Shown in pieces: positions 3,671 through 31,509 of a DNA stretch of 32,000 nt. The stretch spans positions 2,940,001 to 2,972,000 of the forward strand of contig OY969938.1 in assembly GCA_963704755.1 (NCBI GenBank). Reading direction: 5' to 3'. This stretch comes from an uncultured Chloroflexia bacterium (GTDB lineage Bacteria > Chloroflexota > Anaerolineae > Anaerolineales > Anaerolineaceae). The translations under genes and the position numbers were made by a program. The first letter of the stretch is position 1; the number at the start of each line of letters is the position of its first letter. The notes beneath the pieces were generated by a model, which had not been told where the DNA came from, did not search any database, and saw nothing but the letters and a program-made list of their open reading frames with translations.

Positions 3671-4060
3671 GTAGGGTGCAGTTGCGAGGCTGACATCTCG
3701 AGCCTGGTTAATCATCAGGATGTGAGCCGGTCCATGCGTGCCCGCAACGCACCATTGCGGCCTCGACGTAACGAGTTGCCTAAATCGGCGAATTTATTCG
3801 CCGCAACAACAAAACGAAACCTGCCCCGCATTCTTAAGCCCCTCTCCCGTTTCTGGGAGAGGGGTTGGGGTGAGGGGAAACAGGCGTGTAGCGTGTCACG
3901 GCACCGGCTGGACCGGAGGCCTCTCCCCAGACCAAGCCTTGCCCGTACCCCCGACGTTTTTGGCGAGCCCAGGCGTGTTGGTGCGTTGCGGGCGCACATG
4001 GATGGGCATTTTACCCGGTGATTTAACGGCATCATGGATATTGCCCGCAACCGCACCCTA
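3671..4060. repeat. MITE-like element with nested long inverted repeats
   Basis: GTAGGGTGCAGTTGCGAGGC (3671-3690) matches the reverse complement of 4042-4060. TCCATGCGTGCCCGCAACGCACCA (from ~3733) matches the reverse complement of ~3979-4002. The centre carries the CCCCTCTCCC/GGGAGAGGGG hairpin. Confidence 0.5.
3833..3877. repeat. hairpin module C copy (AGCCCCTCTCCCGyTTCTGGGAGAGGGGTTGGGGTGAGGG)
   Basis: 10-bp stem CCCCTCTCCC/GGGAGAGGGG. Near-identical copies at 20994-21033 and 21131-21170. Confidence 0.8.
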
Positions 4061-4149: not shown

Positions 4150-5865
4150 ATGAGCGATTTTAATTCCAACCCTGAAAAGAACGCCAAGATTGGCTATGTC
4201 GTCGGCGGGAGCCTGAAAGATTCCCTGGCGGTGCGCCTGACCGTGCCGCCCCAGGAAGTACAGGAGGGCAGCTTCGTGGTCATCGAGAGCGGCGACTGGC
4301 ATTTTTACGGCCTGGTCACCGACCTGCAGTTGGGCGCAACCGACCCGCGCTTTGCCGACGAGCAGTCCGAGGCGCGCCTGCCGGGCGGCCTGGACGGGCT
4401 GCTGCACGGCCAAACCCTGTACACCAACCTGCAAGTCCTGCCGGCCTTGATGCAGCAAACCGGCCCGGACCCGCTTTCGGATGCATACGCCGCCTGGCGG
4501 GAGGCCCACCCGGACGATTCCGAGCTGCAACCGCAGCCGGTCAAGACTGTGCCGGCCCATCACGCCGGTGTGCGCCTTTCGGATGCGGCCGACGTGGCCA
4601 ACATTTTCGGCAGGCCAGGCGGGGCCAACTACGTCATCGGCTATACCCGCGAGCAGGGCCACCCGGTCTGCATCGACCTGGAAAAGTTCGTCCAGCGCTC
4701 CTCGGGTATCTTTGGGGCCACCGGCACGGGCAAATCCTTCCTGACCCGCATCATCCTGGCCGGGCTGATCGACTACAATGCCGCCTCGGTGCTGGTCTTC
4801 GATATGCATAACGAGTACGCCTACGACGATGTGGCCTCCGACACGCGCGAGACCGTCCCCGGGCTGAAGACCAAGTTCCGCGCGCGCGTACGCGTGGCCG
4901 GGCTGGGCCGCAACGCCAGCATCCGCGGCCAATCCCCCGAGTTCAACCTGGAACTGGCCGAAGGCGATATCGTGCCCGAAGACATCGAAATGCTCACCCG
5001 CGAGCTGAACCTGCGCGAGACCACGCCTACTACCCTGGAGGCGCTCTGGCATTCCTTCCACGAGGATTGGTTCCACGAGTTCAAGGCCATGAAAGTGGGC
5101 AGCCTGATCGAGGATGACAGTGGCAAGAAGGTCCCGGCCCCAGACAGCGTGGCCTTTTGGGCCAACCGGGTGGGGGTCAATGTGGCCGCTGCCGAGGGCC
5201 TGCGTAACAAGCTCGGGCGCCTCTTCAACTTGAATTACCTGGTTGAAAAACCGGCCGCGGACGCCTTGAGCGAGATCATCCACGCCCTGGAACGCGGCCA
5301 GCACGTCATCCTCTCGTTTGGCGACCACGAGAACGACCTGGACTATTTGCTGGTGACCAACCTGCTCACCCGCCGCATCCGCAGTGCCTGGGAGGACCAG
5401 ACCAACCGCTTCCGCTCGCACCCCGAAAAAGAAGCGGAACCGCGCCCGCTGGTGGTGGTCGTCGAAGAGGCTCACAAGCTGCTCAACCGCGAGATGGCCG
5501 CCCAGACCGCCTTTGCCAGCATTGCGCGCGAGATGCGCAAATATTACGTCACCCTGCTGATTATCGACCAGCGCCCCTCTCAGATCTATGACGAAGTCAT
5601 GTCGCAGTTGGGCACGCGCGTCACCGCCTGGCTGGGCGACGAGGCCGATATCGGCGCGGTACTTTCCGGCCTGGCCGGGCGGGATGCGCTGCGCGGGATG
5701 CTGGCCCGCTTGCAGCCCAAGGAAGAAGTTCTCTTGTTGGGCTGGGGCGTCAAAATGCCGATCCTGGTCCGCTCGCGGCGCTATGACCGGGCTTTTTGGC
5801 AGGAAATTCAGCCGGCCCGGACCACCCGCAGCGCCGAAGAAGCTGCCCGCGACCTGTTTGGTTAA
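4150..5865 (+). CDS. HerA-family (DUF87/COG0433-like) ATPase
   Basis: N-terminal HAS-barrel-like IGYVVGGS...GSFVVIE. Walker A GATGTGKS followed by VFDMHNEY. Walker B LVVVVEEAHKLL. LLIIDQRPSQI motif. Confidence 0.9.
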   Translation: MSDFNSNPEKNAKIGYVVGGSLKDSLAVRLTVPPQEVQEGSFVVIESGDWHFYGLVTDLQLGATDPRFADEQSEARLPGGLDGLLHGQTLYTNLQVLPALMQQTGPDPLSDAYAAWREAHPDDSELQPQPVKTVPAHHAGVRLSDAADVANIFGRPGGANYVIGYTREQGHPVCIDLEKFVQRSSGIFGATGTGKSFLTRIILAGLIDYNAASVLVFDMHNEYAYDDVASDTRETVPGLKTKFRARVRVAGLGRNASIRGQSPEFNLELAEGDIVPEDIEMLTRELNLRETTPTTLEALWHSFHEDWFHEFKAMKVGSLIEDDSGKKVPAPDSVAFWANRVGVNVAAAEGLRNKLGRLFNLNYLVEKPAADALSEIIHALERGQHVILSFGDHENDLDYLLVTNLLTRRIRSAWEDQTNRFRSHPEKEAEPRPLVVVVEEAHKLLNREMAAQTAFASIAREMRKYYVTLLIIDQRPSQIYDEVMSQLGTRVTAWLGDEADIGAVLSGLAGRDALRGMLARLQPKEEVLLLGWGVKMPILVRSRRYDRAFWQEIQPARTTRSAEEAARDLFG

Positions 5866-5933
5866 ATTAAACAGGTCCCTGGGGCGCAATTTAATCCGAA
5901 ATATCCCTTGTTTCTCTCACTGAAAAAGATTAA

Positions 5934-6782
5934 ATGAACAGCACAATCCTTATTTTGCTTTTAATCGTCGCCGGGATCCTTTTGGCCGGAGTGGGCCTGA
6001 AAGTTGGCTTTTCCATCCCTGCCCGGTTGATGCCGCCGCCGATTTACGACGACCCGCTTCCCGCGGAGCGCTACGCCATCCCGGCTGACTTGCCTGTGCC
6101 GGTGCAGCGTTATTTGCGCCTGTGTTTTGGCGAGACCGTGCCGGCCCCCCAAAATGTAGTCGCGTACGGCACCGGGCGTTTCCGCGTCCGCCGGATTGGA
6201 TTTTTGGGCTATCTATGGTCGCCGCTGGCCTGGACGATGACGTTGGTGCCGGCGGACCGTTTTGAATGGCACATCCACCTGACCTGGTTTCGCCAGAAAG
6301 TCGCCGAAGGCAGGGATGAATACCGCCAGGGCAAAGGCAGCTTCCAAATGGGCCACGGGACCATGGAAGGCGAGAACATGGACTACTCCGAACAGGTCAT
6401 GCTGTGGCTTTATACCTTTTTCTTCACTCCCGGGGCGCTGCTGCGCGTGCCGGGCATCACCTGGCAGGCTATCGATGAGCATACGGCCCAGGCCCAGGTC
6501 GAGCAAGCCGGCCGCAGCTTACGCTTCAGCCTGGCGTTCGATCCGCAGACCGGCCAGCTTTCCCGCATTGATACTTCCCGGCCTAGCTCGGGTAAGGGCG
6601 AATTATTCCCCTTTTCGCTCATGCTGCAGGGCCAGCAGACTTTCGATACGTCGACCCTGCCGGTCGGCTTGCAGGCTGCCTGGCAAGACGAACCCTATGT
6701 GCACTACACCCTGGCCGGGATTCAGTATAACGGGCCGGTGGAGGAGACCGCAGAAAGCATGGCGGAGGCTGAAGCCGGTTGA
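5934..6782 (+). CDS. membrane-anchored protein, DUF6544-like (tentative)
   Basis: N-terminal TM helix. LPVPVQRYLRL motif as I recall for DUF6544. No other recognisable motif. Confidence 0.65.
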   Translation: MNSTILILLLIVAGILLAGVGLKVGFSIPARLMPPPIYDDPLPAERYAIPADLPVPVQRYLRLCFGETVPAPQNVVAYGTGRFRVRRIGFLGYLWSPLAWTMTLVPADRFEWHIHLTWFRQKVAEGRDEYRQGKGSFQMGHGTMEGENMDYSEQVMLWLYTFFFTPGALLRVPGITWQAIDEHTAQAQVEQAGRSLRFSLAFDPQTGQLSRIDTSRPSSGKGELFPFSLMLQGQQTFDTSTLPVGLQAAWQDEPYVHYTLAGIQYNGPVEETAESMAEAEAG

Positions 6783-6991
6783 GCGGTTTTGCAAAGCGGC
6801 TTTTTCAACACGCCCGCGGAATTTATTGTACAATAAAATAAATGCGTAACGGTTCGGTCCGGCGAGAATAAGCCTCCGCCTGGGGTATTTGTGTGCGGCT
6901 CCACTGCAAACACCTCAAGCCAGGTGGTCTTTTTCAAGGACCGGGCGGTTATCTAGCTTCATTCTTTCACCAACAAGCATCAGGAGATACC

Positions 6992-7408
6992 ATGTTCCAT
7001 ACCATAATCGTTGTTGGTAACGTAGGTCGCGATCCGGAAATGCGCTATACCCCCAGTGGGCAGGCGGTAACCAGTTTTTCAGTCGCAACCAGCCGCCAGT
7101 ACACCGGTGCGAACGGCCAAAAAGTCAAAGAGACCATCTGGTTCCGCATTTCTGCCTGGGGAAAACAGGCTGAGATCTGCAACAATTACCTGCACAAAGG
7201 CAGCCGGGTCCTGGTCGAGGGCCGGCTGGTTGCCGATCCATCCTCAGGCGGGCCGCGTATCTGGAATCGCTCGGATGGTACCCCTGGAGCTTCTTTCGAA
7301 ATCAGCGCCGGTACGGTGCGCTTCCTCTCTCCGCGCGGCGAAAGTGAAGGCGAATTTGGTGGTGAAGAGGCCACCGAAGCTGATGCCGGGGACGATATTC
7401 CTTTCTAA
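6992..7408 (+). CDS. ssb: single-stranded DNA-binding protein
   Basis: VGNVGRDPEMRYTPSGQAV...WFRISAWGKQAE OB-fold. Acidic C-terminal tail ending DDIPF. AGGAG at 6983-6987. Confidence 0.95.
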   Translation: MFHTIIVVGNVGRDPEMRYTPSGQAVTSFSVATSRQYTGANGQKVKETIWFRISAWGKQAEICNNYLHKGSRVLVEGRLVADPSSGGPRIWNRSDGTPGASFEISAGTVRFLSPRGESEGEFGGEEATEADAGDDIPF

Positions 7409-7420
7409 ACCAGGCAAATC

Positions 7421-7750
7421 ATGGAAGAAAAACCTGTACTACCCAAACCGGGGCTGTCGATGGAGCTGCCGGACGACCTTCAGCCGGTATATAGTAACGT
7501 CGCCCGCATCTTCCACACGCCTTCCGACTTTTTAATCGATTTTGCCCGTGTCCTGCCCGGACAGGCTTCAAATCCGGTGCTGGGACGGATCATCATGTCG
7601 CCTTTGGGCGCCAAACTATTCCTGCGCGCGCTGACTGAAAACGTGGCCCGCTTCGAAAGCCAGTTCGGAGAAATCAACATCCCGCCTGGCGATACCGGCC
7701 TGGCCAACGATTTGTTCAAACGCGTGCAGCCCCCCAATTCGAGTGAATAA
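7421..7750 (+). CDS. DUF3467 domain protein
   Basis: YSNVARIFHTPSDFLIDFARV...SPLGAKLFLRAL pattern typical of DUF3467. 12 nt after ssb. Confidence 0.75.
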   Translation: MEEKPVLPKPGLSMELPDDLQPVYSNVARIFHTPSDFLIDFARVLPGQASNPVLGRIIMSPLGAKLFLRALTENVARFESQFGEINIPPGDTGLANDLFKRVQPPNSSE

Positions 7751-7756
7751 ACCCTG

Positions 7757-8422
7757 ATGGAAGACCTTACCCAGTTCAACGAAGATGTTCATGTTTATTT
7801 CGAAGCGCTCAACCAGGCCCGTGACAAAGCCTTACTGCAAGCCCGGCAGCTAACCCGCCTTTCTGCGCACACCATCCGCGCCATCCACCGCAGCGAAGTC
7901 GATGTTGCTCACGAGACGCTGACCCAGGCGCGCGGGGTGGCGAACGCGATGCAAGCCATGCTGTCCGAATATCCCCAGCTCTTGTATGCAGGTTATACCC
8001 AGGATGCGCTGAAAGAATTTTCCGAAGCCAGCCTGACCTGCGCGATTATCGAAGATAAGCCCCTGCCAACCCCCAGCGAACTCAATGTGGATTATGCCAA
8101 TTATCTCAATGGGCTGGCCGAGGTGGTCGGGGAACTGCGCCGGCGTTGCCTGGATATCCTGCGGGCCGGCTATTCGGCCGAGGCCGAGCGCCTGTTGAAC
8201 TGGATGGATGAGATCTATAACGTGCTGGTCACGGTAGATTATCCCGACGCCCTGACCAATGGTTTGCGCCGCCAGACGGACCTGGCCCGCGGCATCATTG
8301 AGCGCACGCGCGGCGACCTGACCATCAGCATCCGCGAAGACCGGCTCCAGCAAGCGCTCAACCGGGCCGTCCATGACCTGGCCAGCGAGGACAATTTGCA
8401 TGCGGACAATCCGCGCGTCTGA
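7757..8422 (+). CDS. translin-family nucleic-acid-binding protein
   Basis: All-helical. YLNGLAEVVGELRR...DALTNGLRRQTD motifs resemble COG2178/translin. 6 nt after the DUF3467 gene. Confidence 0.7.
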   Translation: MEDLTQFNEDVHVYFEALNQARDKALLQARQLTRLSAHTIRAIHRSEVDVAHETLTQARGVANAMQAMLSEYPQLLYAGYTQDALKEFSEASLTCAIIEDKPLPTPSELNVDYANYLNGLAEVVGELRRRCLDILRAGYSAEAERLLNWMDEIYNVLVTVDYPDALTNGLRRQTDLARGIIERTRGDLTISIREDRLQQALNRAVHDLASEDNLHADNPRV

Positions 8423-8639
8423 ACTGGGTTCGTATTTGTACTGCCACCGGGCCTGGTGGTATCAGCAGCAAGGGATCGAATCGGAGAACCTGGGCGAAAT
8501 GACCGCCGGCAGCGCCTTCCACCTGCAGCATGGGCAGAAGGTCTTGACGGCCCGGCTGCTGCGCCTGGCGGGTTGGCTGCTGTTATTGGCTGCCCTGGTC
8601 GCAGGCGCGGTGGCTTTGACGCTGCTGCTGTTGAGGTAA
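8400..8639 (+). CDS. Cas4-like (DUF83) nuclease, N-terminal fragment with TM helix
   Basis: ASELGSYLYC(15)HRAWWY is the N-terminal Cas4 cysteine motif, followed by a hydrophobic helix. Ends at TAA 8637-8639, in the same frame as the next ORF. Confidence 0.6.
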   Translation: MRTIRASELGSYLYCHRAWWYQQQGIESENLGEMTAGSAFHLQHGQKVLTARLLRLAGWLLLLAALVAGAVALTLLLLR

Positions 8640-9176
8640 TTGGGTTTGGCGTTGCTCGGCTTTTTTCTGGCGGCGCTGTTCCTGCTCTTGTTGGGAATCG
8701 TGCTGTTGTGGCAAGGCCGGCGAGCACAGCGCAGCAGCGGGCTGCCATCCGGGCGGGTGATTTACTCCGACCCAAAAATTTTGGGTGCGCCCGAGCGCCC
8801 GCTCTTCGACGGTGAGTATCACCTGACCGGCAAGCCGGACTATCTGGTTGAAGAAGCCGGTGCGGTCATCCCGGTAGAGGTCAAGAGCCGCTGGGCGCCA
8901 TCCCAGCCCCACCCGGGGCATATCTACCAACTGCTGGCCTACTGTCTGTTGGTGGAAAAGACCAGCGGCAAGCGCCCGCCCTATGGCATCTTGCGCTACC
9001 GCAACCGCTCGTTCGCCATAGACTACACCCGCGAGGCCGAGCGTGACCTGCTGGCACTGCTGGATGAAATTCAGCAGGCCGGCGTACGCAAAGAACAGGA
9101 TCGCTCGCATGACGAGCCGGGTCGCTGCGCCCACTGTGGCTATCGCTCGATGTGCGACCAGCGATTAACAAGATAA
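8640..9176 (+). CDS. Cas4-like PD-(D/E)XK nuclease core, C-terminal fragment (TM helix + RecB-like motifs + CxxCx5C)
   Basis: GKPDYLV...VIPVEVKS (D...ExK), YQLLAY (QxxxY), CAHCGYRSMC. In frame with 8400-8639. GAGG (8633-8636) precedes TTG codons at 8640 and 8646. Confidence 0.65.
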   Translation: MGLALLGFFLAALFLLLLGIVLLWQGRRAQRSSGLPSGRVIYSDPKILGAPERPLFDGEYHLTGKPDYLVEEAGAVIPVEVKSRWAPSQPHPGHIYQLLAYCLLVEKTSGKRPPYGILRYRNRSFAIDYTREAERDLLALLDEIQQAGVRKEQDRSHDEPGRCAHCGYRSMCDQRLTR

Positions 9177-9222
9177 GCTGTGATGCGGTCGCTTCGCAGA
9201 CCGCATCACAGCTTATCTTGTT
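9167..9222. terminator. 24-bp perfect palindrome / bidirectional terminator at island boundary
   Basis: 9167-9190 is the reverse complement of 9199-9222. Loop is GCTTCGCA. It contains stop codon 9174-9176. TTTTG follows. Confidence 0.7.
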
Positions 9223-9232
9223 TTGTAACCAA

Positions 9233-9775
9233 CTAATTCGATGAATGATGGGGCAAATTGCTTACCGAAAGGCCGGACTGGGACAGGATATTCTCATTCA
9301 TATTTAATACAAACACTTTGGAAGTTAACCAGTTTGTTTTTTGTTTAAAAACATTCCCTTCGACAGACTTTTTTACTTTTTCGCGTTTTGGAAGATACGA
9401 AGGAATGTCTTGTTCAAGCCATATCACGACCTTAATTTCAGAATTACATAAAGCATGGAAATATTCGTTTATATTAACGGATGGATCAGAATTGCGGTAA
9501 GCGCCCAATAAACCGGCTACCGTATCTCTGACTTTTTGCCCAATTTCAATAGCTAAGTCCCCACTAAAAACTCGTTTTTGATTTTCGATCCTGTACCCTC
9601 GGAAATCTTTCGCTTCGATTAAGAACAAATCGTTTTCTCTCAATCCCAAGAAATCGATCGCTTTGGTCCCTTGAAGCCTTCCCACTCCTTCGCGATATAG
9701 CTCCGTGTCGTCATATTTAATTACTTGCCAGGTATCGTCAAAAGAAAAATGAAGGTTCCCTTCGTCGAAGTCCAT
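9233..9775 (-). CDS. small PD-(D/E)XK-like putative nuclease (no recognised family)
   Basis: AID(41)FLGL-x-LFLIE(54)AK(56)D motif. AT-rich codon usage. Starts 9 nt after the upstream ATPase stop, with a G6 SD-like run. Confidence 0.7.
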   Translation of the reverse strand: MDFDEGNLHFSFDDTWQVIKYDDTELYREGVGRLQGTKAIDFLGLRENDLFLIEAKDFRGYRIENQKRVFSGDLAIEIGQKVRDTVAGLLGAYRNSDPSVNINEYFHALCNSEIKVVIWLEQDIPSYLPKREKVKKSVEGNVFKQKTNWLTSKVFVLNMNENILSQSGLSVSNLPHHSSN

Positions 9776-9784
9776 TGTCCCCCC

Positions 9785-10825
9785 TTATTCAGTTAAAAAT
9801 TGATTTGCTTCTCGATCATAATGGGCAGCAAATTCATCCAGGATGGGATTCCGATCGATTTCTGCCAGCGTTCTGCCTGATTCAAACATTACCCCAGCTT
9901 TTCGTTTGGGCTGATATAGGGCAAAAAATTGGATATCCAGATCTTTATCGTATTCAGCGGCAAGGGAAAGCTCCTGGCTTAATAGAAAATCGTGGGTAGC
10001 AATAAATATTTGCATTCCGGAAGAAGCCAATAATTTCATTGCTTCGACAATGTCAACAATCATTTTGGGGTTTAAATTTGCTTCGGGTTCATCCCAAAAC
10101 AGGAAGCCATTTTGAGTAAGGGACCCATTATTCAAAAGGTAAAGTAATTCGGCTATTTTCCGGTAACCTTCCGAGACAAGCGGAGCTTCGAGCTTTGCTT
10201 CCGGCAAGCGAACATAAAATGTTTGTCCTTCCTGGCTAACACTTGCCCCCGCTAATGCCTTTTTTAAGGGCTCGCCCAGGCGTTTGATTTCCTCCAATTT
10301 TGGACCACGCATAGGCGCCGCTGAAAGCGCAACCGCCAGGTCGTAATAAGTCTGATCGAAAGAGGATTCGCGTGTTTGATATGCGGCAATAAAGCCGGGG
10401 TAAGTAGATAGAAACTCATGAACCGGGAGAAATACAGACTTGTCCGGGGAAGGGAGCTTGTCAAATTCAACGCTTACACTGTTTCTTGCATTTATAGTAA
10501 TTTCGAAGCGGTCGTTGTCGTAGCCTAAGGTTAATTTTCCGGTATTATTTCCTACCTGATGGCGGACCAGGCGGCCTATTTTGTTGGGTTTAAATATACC
10601 TGAAAGATTTTCTTCGCTGATTAACGCAATCTTATTTTTGTCCTCAATTTGGTCGCGCTGTGCAACTTCACAAATTTTCAGGGCGGCATACATCGCCTTC
10701 ATAAGGTGTGTTTTTCCGGTTGAGTTGGCACCGATAAATACGTTAATTCCTGGGTTAAATTGAAACTGGATTGGTTCGGCAAAAGCAGTGAATTGTTCCA
10801 GGACGATTTCGGTTACCTTACCCAT
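9785..10825 (-). CDS. ABC/SMC-type ATPase (AAA_21/AAA_15-like)
   Basis: Walker A GANSTGKT, signature-like VSEGYRK, Walker B FLFWDEPEANLNP, H-loop IATHD. AAGGAG 9 nt upstream of the ATG. Confidence 0.85.
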   Translation of the reverse strand: MGKVTEIVLEQFTAFAEPIQFQFNPGINVFIGANSTGKTHLMKAMYAALKICEVAQRDQIEDKNKIALISEENLSGIFKPNKIGRLVRHQVGNNTGKLTLGYDNDRFEITINARNSVSVEFDKLPSPDKSVFLPVHEFLSTYPGFIAAYQTRESSFDQTYYDLAVALSAAPMRGPKLEEIKRLGEPLKKALAGASVSQEGQTFYVRLPEAKLEAPLVSEGYRKIAELLYLLNNGSLTQNGFLFWDEPEANLNPKMIVDIVEAMKLLASSGMQIFIATHDFLLSQELSLAAEYDKDLDIQFFALYQPKRKAGVMFESGRTLAEIDRNPILDEFAAHYDREANQFLTE

Positions 10826-20836: not shown

Positions 20837-20931
20837 CGGGGGTTAATTTTACCTCATGAGGAGGTGGGAAGGAGAGGATTGTGTGGGGCGAGGTGTCAAG
20901 TGTCATGTGGCGGGTGTCAGGTCGTATGCTA

Positions 20932-21170
20932 GTTGAGCCCCACGCAGGTGGGGCTTCGCGTATTTGTTGGCGCGACCTCGGTCGCCGGATCTTAGCCCCT
21001 CTCCCGCTTCTGGGAGAGGGGTTGGGGTGAGGGCGGGTGCCGGCCGTTGGAATCTCAATGGGTTACGGGTTGAGCCCCACGCCGGTAGGGCTTCGCGTAT
21101 TTGTTGCCGCGACCCTGGTCGCCGGATCTTAGCCCCTCTCCCGCTTCTGGGAGAGGGGTTGGGGTGAGGG
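20932..21170. repeat. two 102-bp direct repeats (20932-21033, 21069-21170), each built of three hairpin modules
   Basis: Units are about 94% identical by eye, with a 137-bp period. Modules: AGCCCCACGCrGGTrGGGCT, GCGACC..GGTCGC, CCCCTCTCCC..GGGAGAGGGG. Confidence 0.85.
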
Positions 21171-21280
21171 AGAGACCTCAGCTCCCCCCGGCTTTGAGAG
21201 CCGGGCTACAAGCCAACCGCTACCACCTCATCCTCGTCACCTTATCCACTTCTCCCTTCTTCTCTGCTATACTTCCACCC

Positions 21281-24662: not shown

Positions 24663-24821
24663 TAACCTTAATGGAAAATGATTGGCGCTCCCCCCACCAA
24701 CTTGCTTCTATTACTTTCGAGATTATACCAGTAAACCCATGTCCTTCCGGAATAATTTATTAAATATTTGATCGATATTTATATAGTCTTAACTTAGGTA
24801 CCCGGGCCTGTACAATAAGTT

Positions 24822-24876
24822 CCCGAATTTGAGGTGTTCGCGCGGACTTCGCCCGCGCGAACACCTCAAATTCGGG
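24822..24876. repeat. palindromic element, copy 2
   Basis: 23-nt arms 24822-24844 and 24854-24876 are perfect reverse complements. They share CCGAATTTGAGGTGTTCGCG with copy 1 (773-829). Confidence 0.85.
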
Positions 24877-24943
24877 AAATCTTTGATAGGAGCCTGAGGA
24901 GTTACGCCAATTTTAAGATTTGTTTAAAGGTTTCCCAACGGTC

Positions 24944-25320: not shown

Positions 25321-27090
25321 ATGGGTAGTTCAATCGAGGGTCACGCCGGCCCGGTTGAAAATACAAAACCAGGGCTGCGATACCGCATCAGTCACGTACC
25401 TTATAAATGGATTGCGTTATCCAACACCACCTTAGGGGTATTTATGGCCTCTCTGGATGGCAGTATCGTGCTGATCTCGCTGCCGGCAATTTTCAAGGGC
25501 ATTGGCATTAATCCGCTGGCCCCGGGCGAGACCGATTATCTGTTATGGACCCTGATGGGATATATGGTCATCACCGCCACGCTGCTGGTGGCCTTTGGCC
25601 GCATTTCGGATATGTTCGGCCGGGTGCGTTTCTACAACCTCGGCTTTGCCATTTTTGCAGTCGGCTCGGTGATGTTGTACCTGGTGCACGGTACCGGCAA
25701 CGCAGCCGCGCTGCAAATTATCATCTTCCGTTTGATCCAGGCAGTGGGTGGGGCCTTCCTGTTTTCCAACTCGACCGCCATTATCACCGACGCCTTCCCG
25801 CCCAACGAGCGCGGTACGGCGATGGGCATCAACCAGATCGCTGCGCTGGCCGGCCAGTTCATCGGGCTGATCCTCGGCGGGATCCTGGCCGCGATCAACT
25901 GGCGGCTGGTATTCTTGATCAGCGTACCTTTCTCGGTGGGCGGCACGATCTGGGCTTACGTGGCCTTGCACGAGACCGCCACCATCCGCGCCCATCAAAA
26001 GCTGGATATCCCAGGCAATATATTGTTCGCCGTGGGGTTAACCGTAATTTTGATTGGGATGACCTACGGCCTTCAACCCTACCAGGGCTCTACCATGGGT
26101 TGGGGCAGCCCGTTGGTGCTCGGCTGCCTGATCGGCGGGGTACTGGCCCTGGTTGCTTTTGTCATCGTCGAGCAGCATACCGAGGAACCCATGTTCCGCC
26201 TGGACCTGTTCAAGATCCGTATGTTCCTGGCGGGTAACGTGGCCGGTTTTCTGGCTTCGCTGGGTCGCGGCGGGCTGAATTTTATGCTGATCATCTGGCT
26301 GCAAGGGATCTGGCTGCCGCTGCACGGCTATTCGTTTGAAGAAACGCCCTTATGGGCCGGCATCTACATGCTGCCGTTGACCGTCGGCTTTTTGTTCACC
26401 GGCCCGGTATGCGGCCATCTCTCCGATCGATTCGGTGCGCGCTTTTTCTCGACCGCCGGGATGATAGTCTCGGCCGGCGGGTTCATTGGGCTGATGACCC
26501 TGCCGCCCAACTTCAACTACATCATTTTCGGCCTGTTCATCCTCTTGATCGGCATGGGTATGGGCATGTTCGCTGCCCCGAACACGACCGCCATTATGAA
26601 CTCGGTCCCGCCGGAGCACCGCGGGGTTTCATCCGGGATGCGCTCCACCTTCCAGAACACGGCTTCCACGCTGAGCATCACTCTCATTTTCACTGTGGTG
26701 ACCATTGGGTTAGCCTCTTCGCTGCCGAATACCCTGTTCCAGGGCTTGAGCCAGGCCGGGGTGCCCACTGTGGACGCGCACGCGGTCGCCAACCTGCCGC
26801 CTACATCCGCGTTATTTGCGGCCTTCCTGGGCTATAACCCGTTGCAGACCATCCTGCCGCCCCAGATACTAAGTTCCCTGCCGGCGGCCTCCCAGTCCGA
26901 GTTGTTGGGTAAAACTTTCTTTCCCAGCCTGCTTTCCGGCCCATTTAAGTCCGGGCTGCGGATTGCATTTTCGATCTCCGCGGTATTGATGGTCATCGCC
27001 GCATTGGCCTCGCTGATGCGCGGTAAAAAGTATACCCATGGCGAGGGTCAAATCCTGGAAGAAATGGCCCCGGAAGATTCGCCTTCCTGA
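25321..27090 (+). CDS. MFS transporter, DHA2 (EmrB/QacA-like, 14-TMS) family
   Basis: GGAGG (25308-25312) lies 8 nt before ATG 25321. About 14 hydrophobic segments. GRISDMFGR motif A-like. Confidence 0.9.
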
Positions 27091-27185
27091 ACATTGCTTG
27101 GTTTTTACCCGTGGACGGCCAAGAATTTTGGCCGCCCACAGGTGTGAATGCCTGCGCCGACCTTGGTCGTCGCAATAAAAACACG

Positions 27186-28503
27186 TAGCCCGGGTTTCCA
27201 AACCCGAGCAAACGCCGGCCTGGCAGAATCCCGGCCAGGGAACACGGCTGCCGCCAAAAGAGAGACCCACGCAGGTGGGTCTTTGTGTTGTTGTAGCCGT
27301 GGCTTTAGCCGCCATCCCTTTGGTCCTGGTCCAACCTCGGAAATTCGTAGACCAAACGCTTTCCCGGCTTTGAAAGCCGGGCTACGAGGACCCGGTTCGA
27401 TAGCCCGGGTTTCCAAACCCGAGCAAACACCGGCCTGGCAGAATCCCGGCCAGGGAACCTGGCTGCTGCCAAAAGAGAGACCCACGCAGGTGGGTCTTTG
27501 TGTACTTGTAGGTGCGGCTTTAGCCGCCACCAGTTTGGCCATCCCTTTGGTCCTGGTCCAACCTCGGAAATTCGTAGACCAAACGCTTTCCCGGCTTCGA
27601 AAGCCGGGCTACAAGGACCCGGTTCGATAGCTCGGGTTTCGAACCCGAGCAAACGCCGGCCTGGCAGAATCCCGGCCAGGGAACACGGTCCGCATCCAAA
27701 AGGAGACCCACGCAGGTGGGTCTTCGTGTTTGTGTAGCCGCGGCTTTAGCCGCCACCGGTTTGGGCATCTCATTGGTCCTGGTCCAACCTCGGAGATTTG
27801 TAGACCAAGCGTTTTCCCGGCTTCGAAAGCCGGGCTACGGACCTGGTTTCGTAGCCCGGGTTTCCAAACCCGAGCAAACACCGGCCTGGCAAAATCCCGG
27901 CCAGGGAACCTGGCTGCTGCCAAAAGAGAGACCCACGCAGGTGGGTCTTTGTGTACTTGTAGGTGCGGCTTTAGCCGCCACCAGTTTGGCCATCCCTTTG
28001 GTCCTGGTCCAACCTCGGAAATTCGTAGACCAAACGCTTTCCCGGCTTCGAAAGCCGGGCTACAAGGACCCGGTTCGATAGCTCGGGTTTCGAACCCGAG
28101 CAAACGCCGGCCTGGCAGAATCCCGGCCAGGGAACACGGCTGCCGCCAAAAGAGAGACCCACGCAGGTGGGTCTTTGTGTACTTGTAGGTGCGGCTTTAG
28201 CCGCCACCGGTTTGGCCCTCCCTTTGGCCCTGGTCCAACCTCGGAGATTCGTAGACTAAGCGTTTTCCCGGCTTCGAAAGCCGGGCTACGGACCTGGTTT
28301 CGTAGCTCGGGTTTCGAACCCGAGCAAACGCCGGCCTGGCAGAATCCCGGCCAGGGAACCCGGCTGCCGCCAAAAGAGAGACCCACGCAGGTGGGTCTTT
28401 GTGTACTTGTAGGTGCGGCTTTAGCCGCCATCCCTTTGGTCCTGGTCCAACCTCGGAGATTCGTAGACCAAACGCTTTCCCGGCTTTGAAAGCCGGGCTA
28501 CGG
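27186..28503. repeat. tandem array of six 215-227-bp units composed of concatenated short hairpins
   Basis: Unit starts (TAGCyCGGGTTT) at 27186, 27401, 27628, 27852, 28079 and 28303. I can see only one difference between units 2 and 4 (451 bp apart). Confidence 0.9.
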
Positions 28504-28587
28504 GCTGGCCTTCGTGCGAAATATGTGATATTTTACGCTATTGACATCTTATGGCAGTAAAGTTATACTGCTGGTTAACAAATGAAT

Positions 28588-28720
28588 ATGGCCTTCGGGG
28601 CAGGGTGAGGGAAACCAGTTTCCCAATTCCCGATCGGTGGTATAACCCACGAGCGTAATTTGCGCAGGACCCGGTGAAATTCCGGGGTCGACGGTAAAGT
28701 CCGGATGAAAGAAGGCGTTA
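28588..28720 (+). promoter_or_regulatory. FMN riboswitch (RFN element) aptamer
   Basis: CUUCGGGGCAGGGUGA...AAUUCCCGAUCGGUGGU...CCCACGAGC...CCGGUGAAAUUCCGGGGUCGACGGUAAAGUCCGGAUGAAAGAAGG matches the RFN consensus. P1 is GCCUUC (28591-96) / GAAGGC (28711-16). Confidence 0.85.
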
Positions 28721-28754
28721 TTAACGGTTGATCAGCCTTGATTAAACTGTGCTT

Positions 28755-28790
28755 TGCCCCGAAGACTATCTGTTTTCGGGATTTTTGTTT
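28755..28790 (+). terminator. riboswitch expression platform: terminator with competing antiterminator
   Basis: 9-bp stem 28758-28766 / 28772-28780 followed by ATTTTTGTTT. 28755-28764 (TGCCCCGAAG) is the exact reverse complement of the aptamer 5' strand 28593-28602. Confidence 0.75.
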
Positions 28791-28823
28791 AATCCCCGGA
28801 AATTTATTCTTGAGGATGCAGTT

Positions 28824-29660
28824 GTGGACCTGAGCTTGCCGAAATTCAATTTGCCCCGCCCGAACCGGTTGCTAACATCGCGGCGGACCTGGATGTGGCA
28901 GACGCCTCTTTCGATCGTTGTAGCCCTTATCGTTTGGGAAGCGGTCGTCAGGGTGACCAATCTGCCGGCTTTCATTCTGCCTTCGCCGCTGCGTGTGGTT
29001 CAACGCTTCGGGCAAGCTATCGCCGATGGTACTTTGCTGCGCCAAACCGGCGCCACGCTTTACGAAGTCGTCCTGGGGTTACTGGTGGGGACCGTACTGG
29101 CGACTTTTTGCGGCTACCTGATCGCCAAATCATCACTGTTCGAAAGGCTGGTAGGCCCTTACCTGGTTGCCAGCCAGGCCATCCCGGTGGTGGCCATCGC
29201 CCCGCTGTTGGTGATCTGGTTTGGACCGGGAATATTCTCCAAGGTATTGATTTGCTCGTTGACCGTTTTCTTCCCGGTGCTGGTCAATACGGTGGTCGGA
29301 TTGCGCTCTGTGTCGGATGACTTGCGCGCGTTGATGCGCTCGCTGCACGCTACACCGATCCAAAACCTGTGCTACCTGGAAGTGCCGGCGGCTTTGCCGG
29401 TCTTTCTGGGGGGGCTGCGCATCGGGGCTACCCTGTCGGTGATCGGCGGCGTGGTCGGCGAGCTGGTCGGCTCTGATCGCGGGCTGGGCTTTTTGATCAA
29501 CGTGGGACGCGGCCAGTACGACACCGCATTGGTCTTCGTTTCGGTGATCACCCTGGTTACCCTGGCGATCATGCTGTATGGCCTGGTGCTGCTGATGGAA
29601 AAGCGCCTGCTGGCCTGGCAAAAAACTCCCACTCAAAACAACTCTATCCAAAATCCTTAG
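28824..29660 (+). CDS. ABC transporter permease (NitT/TauT family, RibX-like)
   Basis: About 6 TM segments and an EAA-like loop. Start is uncertain: GTG 28824 with GAGGA 7 nt upstream, or ATG 28893. The ORF-track start 28749 lies inside the terminator. Confidence 0.85.
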   Translation: MDLSLPKFNLPRPNRLLTSRRTWMWQTPLSIVVALIVWEAVVRVTNLPAFILPSPLRVVQRFGQAIADGTLLRQTGATLYEVVLGLLVGTVLATFCGYLIAKSSLFERLVGPYLVASQAIPVVAIAPLLVIWFGPGIFSKVLICSLTVFFPVLVNTVVGLRSVSDDLRALMRSLHATPIQNLCYLEVPAALPVFLGGLRIGATLSVIGGVVGELVGSDRGLGFLINVGRGQYDTALVFVSVITLVTLAIMLYGLVLLMEKRLLAWQKTPTQNNSIQNP

Positions 29661-29674
29661 GGAGTGTAAAAAGA

Positions 29675-30667
29675 ATGACTTTGAAGCGAGGAATTATCGT
29701 TGCACTGGTTTTGGTGCTGCTGGCGGGCTGTGCTGCGCAACAGGCGGCGGCGCCGACGGCTACCCCAACACCCGCATTGACCAGTATCCGCCTGCCGGTC
29801 GGCTATGTGCCAAACGTGCAGTTTACCCCCCTCTACGTGGCGATCGATAAGGGTTATTTCCGCGACGAGGGCCTGGATGTCAGCCTGGACTACAGCATGG
29901 AAACCGATAACGTGGCCCTGGTGGGCGCCAACAAGTTGCCATTTGCGGTGGTGTCCGGCGAACAGGTGCTGTTGGGACGCGCCCAGGACCTGCCGATCGT
30001 ATATGTTATGTCCTGGTACCGCGATTACCCGGTCGGCGTGGTTTCGCTAACTTCGGAAAATATTCTCAAACCCGCCGATCTGTCCGGCAAGAAGATCGGC
30101 ATTCCGGGGCTGTACGGCGCCAGTTACATCGGCTTCGAGGCGCTGCTCTCGGCCGGTGGGATAAAAGAATCCGACGTCACCCTGGATTCGGTCGGCTATA
30201 ACCAGATCGAAGGTCTGACCTCCGGCCAGGAGCAGGCCGCGGTGATTTACGTGACCAACGAGCCGATCCAATTGGAGAGCGAAGGGTACCAGGTCAATGT
30301 GATGGGCGTGTCCGATTACCTGGCCATGGTCTCGAACGGGTTGATCACCAACGAGCAGACCTTGCAGCAAAACCCGGACCTGGTCAAGCGCATGATCCGT
30401 GCTTTTATCCGCGGCATTCAATATACGGTCGATAACCCCGACGAGGCTTATCAGATCACCACCCGTTACGTGGACAGCTTGAGCACAGCCGACCAGACCG
30501 TCCAGAAAGCCATTCTCAACGCCACCATCAAACTTTACCAGACTGACCCGTGGGGCCAAAGCGATCCGCAGGCCTGGGACAATATGCAAAAGGTGCTGCT
30601 GGATATGACCTTGCTGAAAAGCCCGCTGGATCTTAGCCAGGTCTTCAGTAACGATTATTTGCCTTAG
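29675..30667 (+). CDS. ABC transporter substrate-binding lipoprotein, NMT1/THI5-like (RibY-like)
   Basis: Lipobox LLAGC. LPVGYVPNVQFTPLYVAIDKGYF is typical of NMT1/ThiY-type binding proteins. Confidence 0.9.
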   Translation: MTLKRGIIVALVLVLLAGCAAQQAAAPTATPTPALTSIRLPVGYVPNVQFTPLYVAIDKGYFRDEGLDVSLDYSMETDNVALVGANKLPFAVVSGEQVLLGRAQDLPIVYVMSWYRDYPVGVVSLTSENILKPADLSGKKIGIPGLYGASYIGFEALLSAGGIKESDVTLDSVGYNQIEGLTSGQEQAAVIYVTNEPIQLESEGYQVNVMGVSDYLAMVSNGLITNEQTLQQNPDLVKRMIRAFIRGIQYTVDNPDEAYQITTRYVDSLSTADQTVQKAILNATIKLYQTDPWGQSDPQAWDNMQKVLLDMTLLKSPLDLSQVFSNDYLP

Positions 30668-30678
30668 GATGAGCATGT

Positions 30679-31428
30679 ATGGCTGAGCAAGATACTGTCC
30701 TGGATGTGCGCAAACTGGGGATTATTTTCCCGGGCGAGAACGGCGGCTTGCAGGCGATCCATGACCTGTCATTTACGGTCAAGGCGCAGGAATTCATCTG
30801 TATCCTGGGACCATCCGGCAGCGGCAAGAGCACTTTGCTGCGGGTTCTAGCCGGTTTACTGCCTCCCACCCGCGGTGAGATCCATTACAGTGGTGACCGC
30901 CAGCCGCGGATCGGCTTCGTGTTCCAACAGGCCAATTTGATGCCCTGGCGCACGGCTATTCAAAACATTACCCTGCCGCTGGAAATGCAAGGTGTGCCGG
31001 TTGCGGAAGCCCACCGCCAGGCGCAGGAGCTGATCGAGCGCACCGGGCTGACCGGGTTCGAGTCGAGCTGGCCGCGGGACCTTTCCGGCGGTATGGCGCA
31101 GCGGGTGGCCATCGCCCGGGCGCTGATCCAGGACCCGGACCTGCTTCTCCTGGATGAGCCTTTCGGTTCACTGGACGCACTGACCCGCGATCACATGGGC
31201 GCCGAACTGCTGCAACTGTGGCAGGCCCAGCGCAAAACGGTGATCCTGGTGACCCACTCGATTTCCGAAGCGCTGCTGCTGGCCGACCGGGTGCTGGTGT
31301 TCACTCCTCGCCCGGGCAAGCTGGCCCTGGATTATACCGTCGGGCTGCCGCGCCCGCGGTCAGAGGAAATGCGTTACAGCCCCGAATTTGGCGAAATGTC
31401 GCGCCAGCTTAAAGCCGCCATCGGCTGA
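30679..31428 (+). CDS. ABC transporter ATP-binding protein (NitT/TauT family)
   Basis: Walker A GPSGSGKST, signature LSGGMAQRVAIA, Walker B LLLLDEPFGSLD, H-loop VTHS. Confidence 0.93.
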   Translation: MAEQDTVLDVRKLGIIFPGENGGLQAIHDLSFTVKAQEFICILGPSGSGKSTLLRVLAGLLPPTRGEIHYSGDRQPRIGFVFQQANLMPWRTAIQNITLPLEMQGVPVAEAHRQAQELIERTGLTGFESSWPRDLSGGMAQRVAIARALIQDPDLLLLDEPFGSLDALTRDHMGAELLQLWQAQRKTVILVTHSISEALLLADRVLVFTPRPGKLALDYTVGLPRPRSEEMRYSPEFGEMSRQLKAAIG

Positions 31429-31436
31429 AGTTGTGT

Positions 31437-31491
31437 AAACAAGAATTCGCGGTTTTGGCTGCATTGCAGCCAAAACCGCGAATTCTTGTTT
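31437..31491. terminator. 27-bp perfect palindrome / bidirectional terminator between convergent genes
   Basis: 31437-31463 is the reverse complement of 31465-31491. Confidence 0.75.
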
Positions 31492-31509
31492 GCGCAGTCA
31501 GGCGCAAAA

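Follow-up and report, generated by a model that had tools for sequence, protein, structure and literature searches.

A 1.3 kb tandem array of six-hairpin units in an uncultured Anaerolineae genome, a probable BIME-like cluster of GTAG-type REPs

What kind of element is the 1.3 kb non-coding tandem array found at positions 27186–28503 of a 32 kb stretch of DNA (the whole of which was analysed and is called the window here) from the genome of an uncultured member of the Anaerolineae (Chloroflexota)? The initial annotation, made from the letters alone, offered a menu of natures: a structured RNA, a protein-binding or nucleoid-organising site, a barrier to transcription or replication, or an expanded REP/BIME-like cluster. 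Within this menu the REP/BIME-like cluster fits the anatomy, and a strand-specific structured RNA is not favoured. We consider the array to be probably a BIME-like cluster of GTAG-type REPs. It is most likely a lineage-specific relative of the bacterial REP/BIME clusters rather than something of a new type.

The array is built of six head-to-tail units, as follows.

27186–27400: unit 1, 215 bp
27401–27627: unit 2, 227 bp
27628–27851: unit 3, 224 bp
27852–28078: unit 4, 227 bp
28079–28302: unit 5, 224 bp
28303–28503: unit 6, 201 bp

Complete units are 215–227 bp long, and pairwise identities range from 84 to 99.6%. TRF delimits the array at 27186–28501 with a period of 226 (5.3 copies, 89% matches, score 1897) and gives an alternative period of 451 (3.0 copies, 91% matches, score 2155). 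It is the sole tandem repeat that TRF reports in the 32 kb window. When cut at the six starts proposed by the initial annotation, the units align over 227 columns with a mean column identity of 92%. The observation of the array is thereby confirmed. The two variants of unit start described earlier are present, with TAGCCCGGGTTTCC in units 1, 2, and 4 and TAGCTCGGGTTTCG in units 3, 5, and 6. The boundaries of the array are clean because the flanks show no partial-unit homology.

The array occupies the 3′ flank of an MFS gene and precedes an operon under an FMN riboswitch. The flanking features are as follows.

25321–27090, + strand: MFS gene, 14-TMS-type, MFS_1; the nearest NCBIfam model is the DHA2/EmrB subfamily, with a score below cut-off
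27100–27174, + strand: two hairpins unrelated to the array, neither with a T-tract (27091–27185 folds at −39.8 kcal/mol)
28541–28569, + strand: sigma-70-type promoter of the riboswitch operon, TTGACA, 17 nt spacer, TATACT, with 11/12 matches
28587–28720, + strand: FMN riboswitch aptamer (Rfam RF00050, 93.1 bits)
28758–28790: intrinsic terminator after the riboswitch aptamer
28824–29660: permease of the ABC operon
29675–30667: NMT1/THI5-like binding protein of the ABC operon
30679–31428: ATPase of the ABC operon

The MFS gene is intact, since relatives align up to residues 592–594. The array had been said to fill the whole gap between the MFS gene and the riboswitch. It does so for the most part, leaving 95 bp between the MFS stop (27090) and the array, where the two unrelated hairpins lie, and 37 bp between the array end and the promoter −35 box.

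Every unit is a chain of six hairpins, which we call modules A to F. Five palindromes had been listed, and all five are found in all units; the sixth, the long-loop hairpin E, is additional. The modules, given for unit 1 with the positions in units 2 to 6 after the semicolon, are as follows.

27185–27209, + strand: module A, REP-like hairpin tagged (G/A)TAG, stem of 9 bp, C.A mismatch in variant 1; 27400–27424, 27627–27650, 27851–27875, 28078–28101, 28302–28325
27219–27239, no strand assigned: module B, hairpin CCTGGC-AGAATCCCG-GCCAGG; 27434–27454, 27660–27680, 27885–27905, 28111–28131, 28335–28355
27261–27284, no strand assigned: module C, 9–10 bp hairpin AGAGACCCAC-GCAG-GTGGGTCTTT, MFE −15.9 kcal/mol; 27476–27499, 27702–27725, 27927–27950, 28153–28176, 28377–28400
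27296–27314, + strand: module D, hairpin GCGGC-TTTA-GCCGC with GTAG ahead of it; 27511–27531, 27737–27757, 27962–27982, 28188–28208, 28412–28430
27319–27356, no strand assigned: module E, weak long-loop hairpin TTTGGTC...GACCAAA with GTAG inside; 27546–27583, 27772–27809, 27997–28034, 28223–28260, 28435–28472
27363–27385, − strand: module F, inverted REP-like hairpin CCCGGCTT-yGA-AAGCCGGG, then CTAC; 27590–27612, 27816–27838, 28041–28063, 28267–28289, 28479–28501
27386–27400, no strand assigned: F-to-A linker after unit 1, of type (G/A)AGGACCCGGTTCGA; other linkers at 27613–27627, 27839–27851, 28064–28078, 28290–28302

Taken singly, the hairpins have RNA MFEs from −8.9 to −15.9 kcal/mol. Two linker types occur, (G/A)AGGACCCGGTTCGA following units 1, 2, and 4 and GGACCTGGTTTCG following units 3 and 5. 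Module C follows an A-run and precedes a T-rich run and therefore looks like a terminator on both strands; a scan for terminator-like sites found 15 in the region, against 3.8 expected, and picked up the C hairpins on both strands. The tracts downstream of the C hairpins (UCUUUGUGU) are weak U-tracts. Modules C and D together form a 65 nt double-hairpin.

Modules A and F belong to one family. A GTAG REP is defined by a stem of 5–13 bp, a loop of 2–20 nt, and an unpaired GTAG, and such elements are often clustered (PMC3733652; PMC3333891). In the window the A/F family has 13 members, six A on the + strand and seven F on the − strand, with stems of 8–9 bp and loops of 2–3 nt. The stem-loop and the unpaired 5′ tag of a GTAG REP, an imperfect palindrome of 20–40 nt, are thus seen in A and F, the tag being GTAG in 10 of the 13 (all seven F and three of the six A) and ATAG in the other three, all of them A. 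Within module A, units 1, 4, and 6 have GTAG, and units 2, 3, and 5 have ATAG. Read on the − strand, module F is GTAG followed by a perfect 8 bp stem with a 3 nt loop. With the covariance model R2, the array copies of A score 38–47 bits and those of F 48–50 bits. The two hairpins are inverted with respect to each other and 86% complementary over 22 nt. A (G/A)TAG-tagged A together with an inverted F ending in CTAC is the signature of GTAG-type REPs in a BIME-like tandem cluster.

The arrangement runs A(+), a spacer of ~165 nt, F(−), a linker of 13–15 nt, and the next A(+), so that GTAG ends face inward across the short F–A linker and outward across the long A–F spacer. In BIME-2 and the Stenotrophomonas BIMEs, head-to-tail modules contain alternating REPs, and the copies are similar within a locus (PMC2817692; PMC3333891). 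The array likewise has alternating REPs with linkers and a tandem module whose copies are well conserved within the locus. It is also extragenic, as is the one family member outside it. GTAG occurs at 10.6 per kb in the array versus 1.4 per kb elsewhere, and 12 of the 13 A/F copies lie inside the array, with one solitary copy in the remaining 30.7 kb. REPs are defined in part by a high copy number, with tens to thousands of dispersed copies per genome; the single A/F copy outside the array and the ATAG tags of three A copies count against the REP reading.

That solitary copy belongs to a second locus, 20927–21212, which has the layout [C-D + other repeat] × 2, then F.

20927–21170, + strand: second mosaic cluster, a 2 × 137 bp tandem, each copy with a C-D-like double hairpin and the element AGCCCCTCTCCCGCTTCTGGGAGAGGGGTTGGGGTGAGGG
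21187–21209, − strand: solitary module F, CCCGGCTTTGAGAGCCGGGCTAC, in the MutS2/EttA divergent intergenic region

The solitary F scores 37.7 bits with R2 (E = 2.5e-10). The C-D double-hairpin recurs at 20927–20991 and 21064–21128, and these copies score 76.8 and 69.4 bits with covariance model R1. Since F stands alone at 21187–21209 and C-D appears twice at 20927–21128, the modules are dispersed and mosaic. Such reuse of motifs elsewhere is a property of BIMEs, seen here at a single extra locus in the window.

How did the six units come about? The initial annotation saw only one difference between units 2 and 4 and took it to imply recent duplication of a two-unit block. The first point is exact: the two units differ only at column 41 (G27441 vs A27892). 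The second holds in part. Units 2 and 4 are nearly identical, but units 3 and 5 are mosaic, with 22 differences that all fall in columns 63–180 while both ends are identical, and the near-identical tract at lag 451 covers only ~288 bp (27401–27688 and 27852–28139). The centre of unit 3 is divergent, and unit 5 is chimeric. The mosaic of units 3 and 5 therefore indicates gene conversion or unequal exchange. The history of the array is a recombination mosaic, not a clean two-unit block.

Variation between units falls mostly outside the stems. In the alignment of the six, the variable columns number 7 out of 104 in stems and 35 out of 123 elsewhere (Fisher p = 2.5e-5). Between the A and F subfamilies there are both-sided pair changes, C-G to G-C and C-G to U-A, and between the C-D copies of the array and those of the second locus there are compensatory changes, A-U to C-G and G-C to A-U. 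In the C-D alignment, 97% of cells are paired, versus 37–54% in slid controls. Folding of both strands, which the initial annotation had proposed as a check, gave stable structures on each, equally well: a single unit folds at −101.4 kcal/mol on the + strand (z = −4.2) and −102.4 on the − strand (z = −3.2), and the whole array has an MFE of −629.5 kcal/mol on the + strand and −639.0 on the − strand.

Relatives of the array were sought widely. The exact pattern of module F had no match in 185,579 species-representative genomes. A single metagenome match of F lies within a protease-type coding sequence and was set aside as chance. Module C had no match in viral contigs, and blastn of the two-unit block against plasmids and phages returned nothing. 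BLAST of the units and of the second-locus repeat against 73 loci (1.2 Mb) from Anaerolineae relatives gave only chance matches of 14–28 nt; no comparable array was seen in these ~1.2 Mb of related loci, and the A/F covariance model found no copy in ~1 Mb of relatives. The C-D model gave two borderline matches in relatives, L035:16994–17056 (27.6 bits) and L008:7680–7742 (22.6 bits). A clade-wide C-D family is unsupported, because a model enlarged with both found no further members. Translation of the array in all frames on both strands matched nothing at E ≤ 1e-3 among 5.8 billion proteins; therefore, no sibling arrays called as ORFs were found. A cognate RAYT gene (Y1, IS200/IS605-like) flanked by inverted copies of the REP is a further mark of GTAG REPs; no Y1/RAYT transposase was detected among the window ORFs scanned with Pfam, which counts against the REP reading.

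A comparison with related genomes, also proposed at the outset, showed that the array is not conserved. The array is missing from the two closest relatives, whose riboswitch operons are orthologous (amino-acid identities of 89% and 84%). Tandem copy number in BIMEs differs from strain to strain; no second strain was found for this locus. The alignments of loci L072 and L073 begin at window positions ~28534–28538, i.e., at the promoter. None of 69 MFS-homolog loci adjoins the riboswitch operon. In L072, a hairpin with the same GCAG loop lies upstream of the riboswitch promoter. The initial annotation had stated that its proposal would fall if the modules were ordinary genome-wide REP elements and the array showed no conservation; half of this was found, namely the lack of conservation.

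Several known classes were considered, and most were set aside. The array is not a CRISPR, as had been concluded earlier, since the full 225 bp period repeats, with no unique sequence between units. It also has no coding potential, in keeping with the earlier view that the ORFs across it are repeat-derived: these ORFs span at most about two units, and frames are not kept. Each of the five complete units has a length of 2 mod 3, and the reading frame is lost from unit to unit. A repetitive protein gene was rejected. For an integron attC array, the + strand has no GTTRRRY and one RYYYAAC per unit, hence no pairs, and there are no cassette ORFs. For a type III toxin-antitoxin RNA array, no toxin gene is adjacent and the unit is far too long. 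A REPIN doublet was rejected given the ~165 bp spacer and the fact that the sole copy outside the array is an F without a partner. A and F are like 22 nt terminal inverted repeats of a MITE, with their 86% complementarity; no target-site duplication was found, and neither the window nor the searched collections contain a dispersed whole unit.

Four other explanations have to be weighed against a BIME-like cluster. One is a private tandem duplication, or minisatellite, in which slippage or unequal crossing-over locally multiplied an ordinary intergenic segment that held a few terminator-type hairpins, with no tie to REPs or RAYTs and no genome-wide family. The concentration of 12 of the 13 A/F copies in this one array, the lack of matches to the module in species-representative genomes and metagenomes, the window free of a transposase, and a mosaic pattern that shows recombination at work on the array all agree with it, and the GCAG-loop hairpin of L072 suggests that terminators of such shape are native to the clade. 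What makes this account unlikely is that the modules are not private, as shown by the second locus with its two C-D copies and by the solitary F at a distance of 6 kb, and that GTAG/CTAC tags, the inversion of A and F, and compensatory stem changes are unexpected for a random segment. Still less probable is an array of structured non-coding RNAs, in which each unit would give a ~225 nt multi-hairpin RNA, arising when transcription runs on out of the MFS gene or starts at an unrecognised promoter, and processed afterwards. The unit fold beats shuffles on the + strand, stems are conserved with compensatory changes, and the terminator scan found no + strand terminator-like site between the MFS stop and module C of unit 1. 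However, the opposite strand folds equally well, as DNA palindromes should, and the strand bias is inconsistent, G9.U30 of C favouring the + strand and the C.A mismatch of A variant 1 the − strand. Scans against Rfam 15, at gathering and at E ≤ 10, likewise gave no family near its gathering score when the suggested Rfam/Infernal check was run (best Scr1601 at 25.5 bits, gathering 100; others <21). No tRNA or tmRNA genes were found. A promoter scan found no sigma-70-type promoter within the array, which is missing even in relatives at 84–89% amino-acid identity.

A dedicated protein-binding or topological site, selected upstream of the riboswitch promoter for loading of gyrase or a nucleoid protein or as a supercoiling insulator, is very improbable. 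In E. coli, DNA gyrase is reported to bind to BIME-2 clusters, and IHF and Pol I to REPs (PMC2817692; PMC3333891), and the conserved promoter is 37 bp from the array end. Against this, in relatives that promoter and riboswitch operate with no array, and a recent study found no role in chromosome compaction for a model E. coli REP cluster (bioRxiv 10.64898/2026.03.23.713779). That the array is an assembly artefact, one or fewer units wrongly expanded, we regard as hardly credible. The assembly is of the metagenome type, and the 288 bp tract that is nearly identical at a 451 bp lag means that the exact copy number could be misjudged. However, the array sits in a 4.87 Mb contig, and all units except 2 and 4 are distinguishable by 6–37 substitutions plus indels, with linker types alternating in order, which collapse or expansion errors do not yield. 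To the right of the array, the neighbourhood is matched at 99.9% by an independent short-read contig of 1.2 kb, which ends inside the riboswitch, short of the array. Exact-protein look-ups for an independent assembly of the array gave no record for three window proteins and, for the permease, only this contig.

On the reading as a BIME-like cluster of GTAG-type REPs, the basic element would be a ‘head-to-head’ REP dimer A...F of ~210 bp whose ~165 bp spacer holds B, C, D, and E, and this element plus a 13–15 bp linker would have been reiterated six times. For the amplification we infer unequal recombination, replication slippage, or a rolling-circle or strand-transfer route as proposed for REP-associated Y1 transposases, with copies later partly homogenised through gene conversion. 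The array would then be no gene but a stretch of semi-selfish DNA, non-coding and specific to its lineage, and its physiological effect would most likely be incidental and local. RNA polymerase leaving the MFS gene may be stopped by the hairpin chain, and the 3′ end of the MFS mRNA may be protected; a precedent is the E. coli REP325 cluster, which within a 3′ UTR both terminates transcription and stabilises the mRNA (bioRxiv 10.64898/2026.03.23.713779). The best candidates for terminators would be the six bidirectional terminator-like C hairpins, at which termination is plausible, though the U-tracts are weak. The outcome would be insulation of the promoter of the FMN-riboswitch operon, 37 bp downstream.

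A stronger form of this idea, which we think quite unlikely, is that the array is a selected lineage-specific device, either a six-fold bidirectional terminator/insulator that shields the riboswitch operon from MFS read-through or a source of processed ~225 nt six-hairpin RNAs. Were it true, the avoidance of stems by substitutions would reflect selection on function. Hairpin-templated repair or recognition by a transposase is an alternative cause of that avoidance.

How does a BIME-like cluster of this make compare with known systems? As in the E. coli BIME-2/atypical, Stenotrophomonas, and Xanthomonas BIMEs, GTAG hairpins alternate with linkers between them in a head-to-tail module, copies within the locus are very similar, motifs are recombined between loci, palindromes are kept by complementary mutations, and the array lies outside genes, following a member of a co-directional gene pair. 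Unlike those BIMEs, it has a unit of ~225 bp with six hairpins, two or three of them REP-like, and its host is a member of the Anaerolineae and not a proteobacterium. To our knowledge, classical BIME modules are much shorter and simpler than the 225 bp unit, whose structured spacer takes up 165 bp. Nearly all work on REP/BIME systems has been done in Proteobacteria. Thermomicrobium roseum, of the same phylum (Chloroflexi) and of class Thermomicrobia, not Anaerolineae, has GTAG-23 REPs, which belong to the GTAG-tagged REP superfamily (Di Nocera et al. 2013, PMC3733652). These lie within small CCGSSCC...GGSSCGG palindromes, of which the array shows none. Our literature search found no other catalogued case in the Chloroflexota.

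Among GTAG REPs of the Pseudomonas type, one from P. mendocina, GTAGCCCGGATGCAATCCGGG (Nunvar et al. 2010, PMC2817692), has nearly the design of module F on the − strand, GTAGCCCGGCTTTCGAAGCCGGG, with GTAG followed directly by CCCGG...CCGGG. They differ in loop and inner stem, and the likeness, in a palindrome so short and GC-rich, may be convergent and implies no phylogenetic link. Two inverted REP-type sequences bound the element, as in REPINs, the REP doublets mobilised by RAYTs; unlike REPINs, whose spacer is short, the element has a much longer one of ~165 bp with its own hairpins and is tandem rather than scattered, with no dispersed doublets in the window. The Neisserial intergenic mosaic elements (RS repeats bounded by dRS3/CGTC-1) also interleave tagged palindromes with other repeats, but there the tag is CGTC instead of GTAG, and sequences and hosts are unrelated.

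The element is otherwise ordinary and gives no pointer to a new biological mechanism. A BIME-like cluster in an uncultured peat- or soil-type member of the Anaerolineae would widen the known range of GTAG-tagged palindromes, and the array shows an unusually large basic module of six hairpins. Such arrays break short-read assemblies and draw spurious ORF calls, and their recognition improves the annotation of MAGs. Should the genome prove to encode a Y1 transposase with these hairpins on either side, it would offer a natural system in which to follow how such clusters originate.

Tandem Repeats Finder places one array in the 32 kb window, at 27186–28501, with a period of 226 (5.3 copies, 89% matches) or, alternatively, of 451 (3.0 copies, 91%). 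Cut at the six starts proposed in the initial annotation, the units (u1 to u6) align cleanly over 227 columns with a mean column identity of 92%. The palindromes listed there, called here hairpin modules A, B, C, D and F, are found in every unit, and each unit has an additional hairpin, E, which is weaker and has a long loop. Two start variants are present as described, variant 1 in u1, u2 and u4 and variant 2 in u3, u5 and u6. Folded singly as RNA, the hairpins have energies of −8.9 to −15.9 kcal/mol, and the unit as a whole is, on either strand, much more stable than shuffled sequences (z = −4.2 and −3.2). The base composition, 58–59% G+C, is that of the surrounding DNA. The array as first observed is confirmed, far beyond chance; its description was correct overall, and the feature is real.

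The array is not coding. The five complete unit lengths are all 2 mod 3, so that no frame is kept between units, and translations of all frames on both strands found no match among 5.8 billion proteins. Unique spacers are absent, in agreement with the earlier statement that this is not a CRISPR. An integron attC array was also rejected, as the paired attC core sites are absent.

The unit has a tagged, oriented design. Module A reads (G/A)TAG-CCCGGGTTTCCAAACCCGAG; module F, once reverse-complemented, reads GTAG-CCCGGCTTTCGAAGCCGGG. A and F represent two oppositely oriented subfamilies of the same GTAG-headed hairpin, and two stem pairs differ between them on both sides (C-G to G-C and C-G to U-A). 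The unit is therefore A(+), about 165 nt, F(−), with consecutive units joined by linkers of 13–15 nt that are of two alternating types. GTAG also precedes module D in six of six units; its density is 10.6 per kb in the array versus 1.4 per kb elsewhere, and GTAG with a stem of at least 8 bp is confined to the array plus one other place. Module C is AGAGACCCAC-GCAG-GTGGGTCTTT, with an A-run upstream and a T-rich run downstream. A scan picks it up as terminator-like on either strand and counts 15 such sites in the region, versus 3.8 expected.

Relatives of the array modules, and a further repeat, lie elsewhere in the window, as follows.

20932–21170: two tandem copies of 137 bp, 95% identical, just upstream of a solitary module F
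21187–21209: solitary module F in the divergent MutS2/EttA region (37.7 bits, A/F covariance model)
3837–3876, 20994–21033 and 21131–21170: three copies, 98% identical, of the AGCCCCTCTCCCGYTTCTGGGAGAGGGGTTGGGGTGAGGG repeat, a hairpin with a G-rich tail

Each 137 bp copy contains a double hairpin like C-D (76.8 and 69.4 bits), then a different repeat, AGCCCCTCTCCCGCTTCTGGGAGAGGGGTTGGGGTGAGGG, of which 3837–3876 is another occurrence. The divergent MutS2/EttA promoter region carries a second mosaic cluster (20927–21212), in which a C-D-like double hairpin and a GGGAGAGGGGTTGGGGTGAGGG-type element occur twice, followed by the solitary GTAG-type hairpin F. Within the AGCCCCTCTCCCGYTTCTGGGAGAGGGGTTGGGGTGAGGG tail, GGGGTGAG matches the motif GGGGWSAS, which is a possible lead; this motif has been reported for the inverted repeats on either side of RAYT-like 'TIRYT' transposase genes (PMC3733652). 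A weak C-D-like match at 3782–3854 (minus strand, 16.9–20 bits) adjoins the AGCCCCTCTCCCGYTTCTGGGAGAGGGGTTGGGGTGAGGG copy at 3837–3876.

Substitutions avoid the stems. Among the six units, 7 of 104 stem columns vary, versus 35 of 123 others (Fisher p = 2.5e-5, for units that are not independent and stems defined on u2). Comparison of the C-D copies of the array with those of the MutS2/EttA cluster shows two stem pairs in which both partners are replaced (A-U to C-G and G-C to A-U), and 97% of C-D cells are paired, versus 37–54% with slid partners.

The recent duplication of a two-unit block, suggested by the initial annotation, stands in part. Units u2 and u4 do differ by exactly one base, within a near-identical tract at a lag of 451 bp that spans about 288 bp (27401–27688 versus 27852–28139, one mismatch). 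The duplication is not clean: past this tract come 22 differences between u3 and u5, confined to columns 63–180, after which the two are identical again. Compared segment by segment, the centre of u3 is an outlier, with 17–22 differences to each other unit; u5 ends as u3 does (0 differences), and its centre is like that of u6 (2 differences) and of u2/u4 (6 differences). A 12 nt deletion and a TTTGA loop variant of F are common to u1 and u6. The units are a mosaic made by recombination or gene conversion, as expected in a tandem array with unequal exchange.

The claim that the array fills the gap between the MFS gene and the riboswitch holds for most of it. Left over are 95 bp after the MFS stop, which contain two hairpins unrelated to the array, and the 37 bp between the array end and the −35 box of a sigma-70-type promoter. 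From the MFS stop codon to the first C hairpin, the scan found no terminator-like site on the plus strand, so read-through from the MFS gene into the array is plausible. The downstream control elements are as follows.

28541–28569: strong sigma-70-type promoter (11/12 matches), driving the FMN riboswitch
28587–28720: FMN riboswitch (93 bits)
28758–28790: intrinsic terminator downstream of the riboswitch

In the operon at 28541–31428, these elements, with the promoter conserved, govern an ABC transporter of NitT/TauT type whose binding protein is NMT1/THI5-like; it resembles riboflavin importers of the RibXY type that have been predicted in Chloroflexi.

Among orthologous riboswitch operons, the two nearest (89% and 84% amino-acid identity) have a promoter and riboswitch of 77–82% nucleotide identity and align only from about 28534–28538, that is, from the −35 box. 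Upstream of this, both relatives have unrelated sequence, and the 84% relative has a different upstream gene. The best relatives of the MFS protein (72–81% amino-acid identity) are from Anaerolineae/Chloroflexota MAGs, mostly of peat, bog and fen, and the riboswitch operon adjoins the MFS homolog at none of 69 such loci. Since operon homology starts at the −35 box and the MFS loci lack the operon, the array lies at a lineage-specific synteny junction and is not conserved. Upstream of its riboswitch promoter (L072:9560–9720), the 84% relative has a long perfect palindrome and a GCCCTCC-GCAG-GAGGGC hairpin, whose GCAG loop is that of module C, and two IS110-family transposase genes lie 3–5 kb upstream.

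Other parts of the window contain the following genes.

603–702: bacterial small SRP RNA (Rfam RF00169, 56.4 bits)
9233–9775, minus strand: 180 aa partner of the AAA_21 ATPase (HEC-02B, E = 2e-31)
9785–10825, minus strand: AAA_21 ATPase (PADLOC HEC-02A, E = 1e-88)

The last two form a candidate defence system in a low-GC island (9233–10825, minus strand; 42–45% versus about 58%). A cluster at 4150–9176 encodes a HerA-like ATPase (DUF87 and HAS barrel), a DUF6544 protein, an SSB, a Cas4-like PD-(D/E)XK nuclease and two proteins without a Pfam match, and may be a DNA-repair or defence module. Another dispersed palindromic family, with core CCGAATTTGAGGTGTTCGCGCGG, occurs between genes at two places separated by 24 kb, each time as long inverted repeats, beside the SRP RNA (743–829) and upstream of the MFS gene (24813–24905). 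Long perfect or near-perfect inverted repeats between genes at 2540–2608, 9167–9222 and 31432–31496 (arms of 33, 24 and 32 nt) are probably bidirectional terminators; that at 2540–2608 is AT-rich and built of AGTAATG-type heptamers.

The main rival to a REP origin is a tandem duplication private to this locus, without a family across the genome; we consider it improbable. Outside the window, related sequence was sought with negative results throughout. An exact search of 185,579 species-representative genomes gave no copy of module F, and its sole match in metagenomes is inside a coding sequence, by chance. Nothing similar was found in plasmids, phages or viral contigs, or, by BLAST and covariance models, in 1.2 Mb of related loci, where, among tandem repeats of period 40 bp or more, the biggest is 3.4 × 61 bp. 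The C-D model gave borderline matches in two other Anaerolineae MAGs (L035:16994–17056, 27.6 bits; L008:7680–7742, minus strand, 22.6 bits) that have in common the GCAG loop, GCTTYGC, GTTG and ...GCCGG. A clade-wide C-D family is unsupported, because iteration of the model added no further members.

The other readings are less likely. Against an array of RNA genes, the array contains no tRNAs and no internal sigma-70-type promoters, and its Rfam matches all fall far short of gathering (best 25.5 bits versus a threshold of 100). As a whole it folds equally well on either strand (−629.5 versus −639.0 kcal/mol), and the few wobble pairs and mismatches favour neither strand; this symmetry suggests palindromes at the level of DNA and speaks against a strand-specific RNA. 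A site dedicated to protein binding is likewise less likely, as is an assembly artefact; the permease of the window is on a 4.87 Mb contig, which indicates a chromosome-scale assembly.

The array is a non-coding, palindromic, modular tandem cluster, specific to its lineage, whose stems are maintained and whose units recombine. The best explanation, held with somewhat better than even confidence, is that REP hairpins with GTAG tags form a BIME-like cluster in this Anaerolineae genome. GTAG-type REPs, as defined in the literature, have a stem of 5–13 bp, a loop of 2–20 nt and, at one end, a GTAG that stays unpaired, and often form head-to-head or tail-to-tail dimers with spacers of 20–100 bp that may contain stem-loops; they are on record in Chloroflexi. 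Module F is built almost like a REP of P. mendocina, GTAGCCCGGATGCAATCCGGG. BIME-2 elements occur in multiple tandem copies, well conserved within a locus and varying in number between strains (PMC3333891), and Stenotrophomonas BIMEs have head-to-tail basic modules in which complementary mutations preserve the palindromes (PMC2817692). Within the 32 kb covered, the array agrees with such a cluster at each structural point examined; REPs are further defined by a high copy number across the genome and a cognate RAYT transposase.

By analogy with such clusters, the array would have originated by amplification of a REP-dimer module, perhaps through unequal exchange or slippage, or through the rolling-circle or strand-transfer activity of a Y1 transposase, a route proposed previously (PMC2817692, PMC3333891); the window contains no Y1 transposase. 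Locally, the array may act as a terminator and 3′-end stabiliser for the MFS transcript and as an insulator of the riboswitch promoter; for the E. coli REP325 cluster, termination and mRNA stabilisation have been demonstrated by experiment (bioRxiv 10.64898/2026.03.23.713779). What is distinctive is the unusually large, six-hairpin module and its host, a member of an under-sampled phylum.
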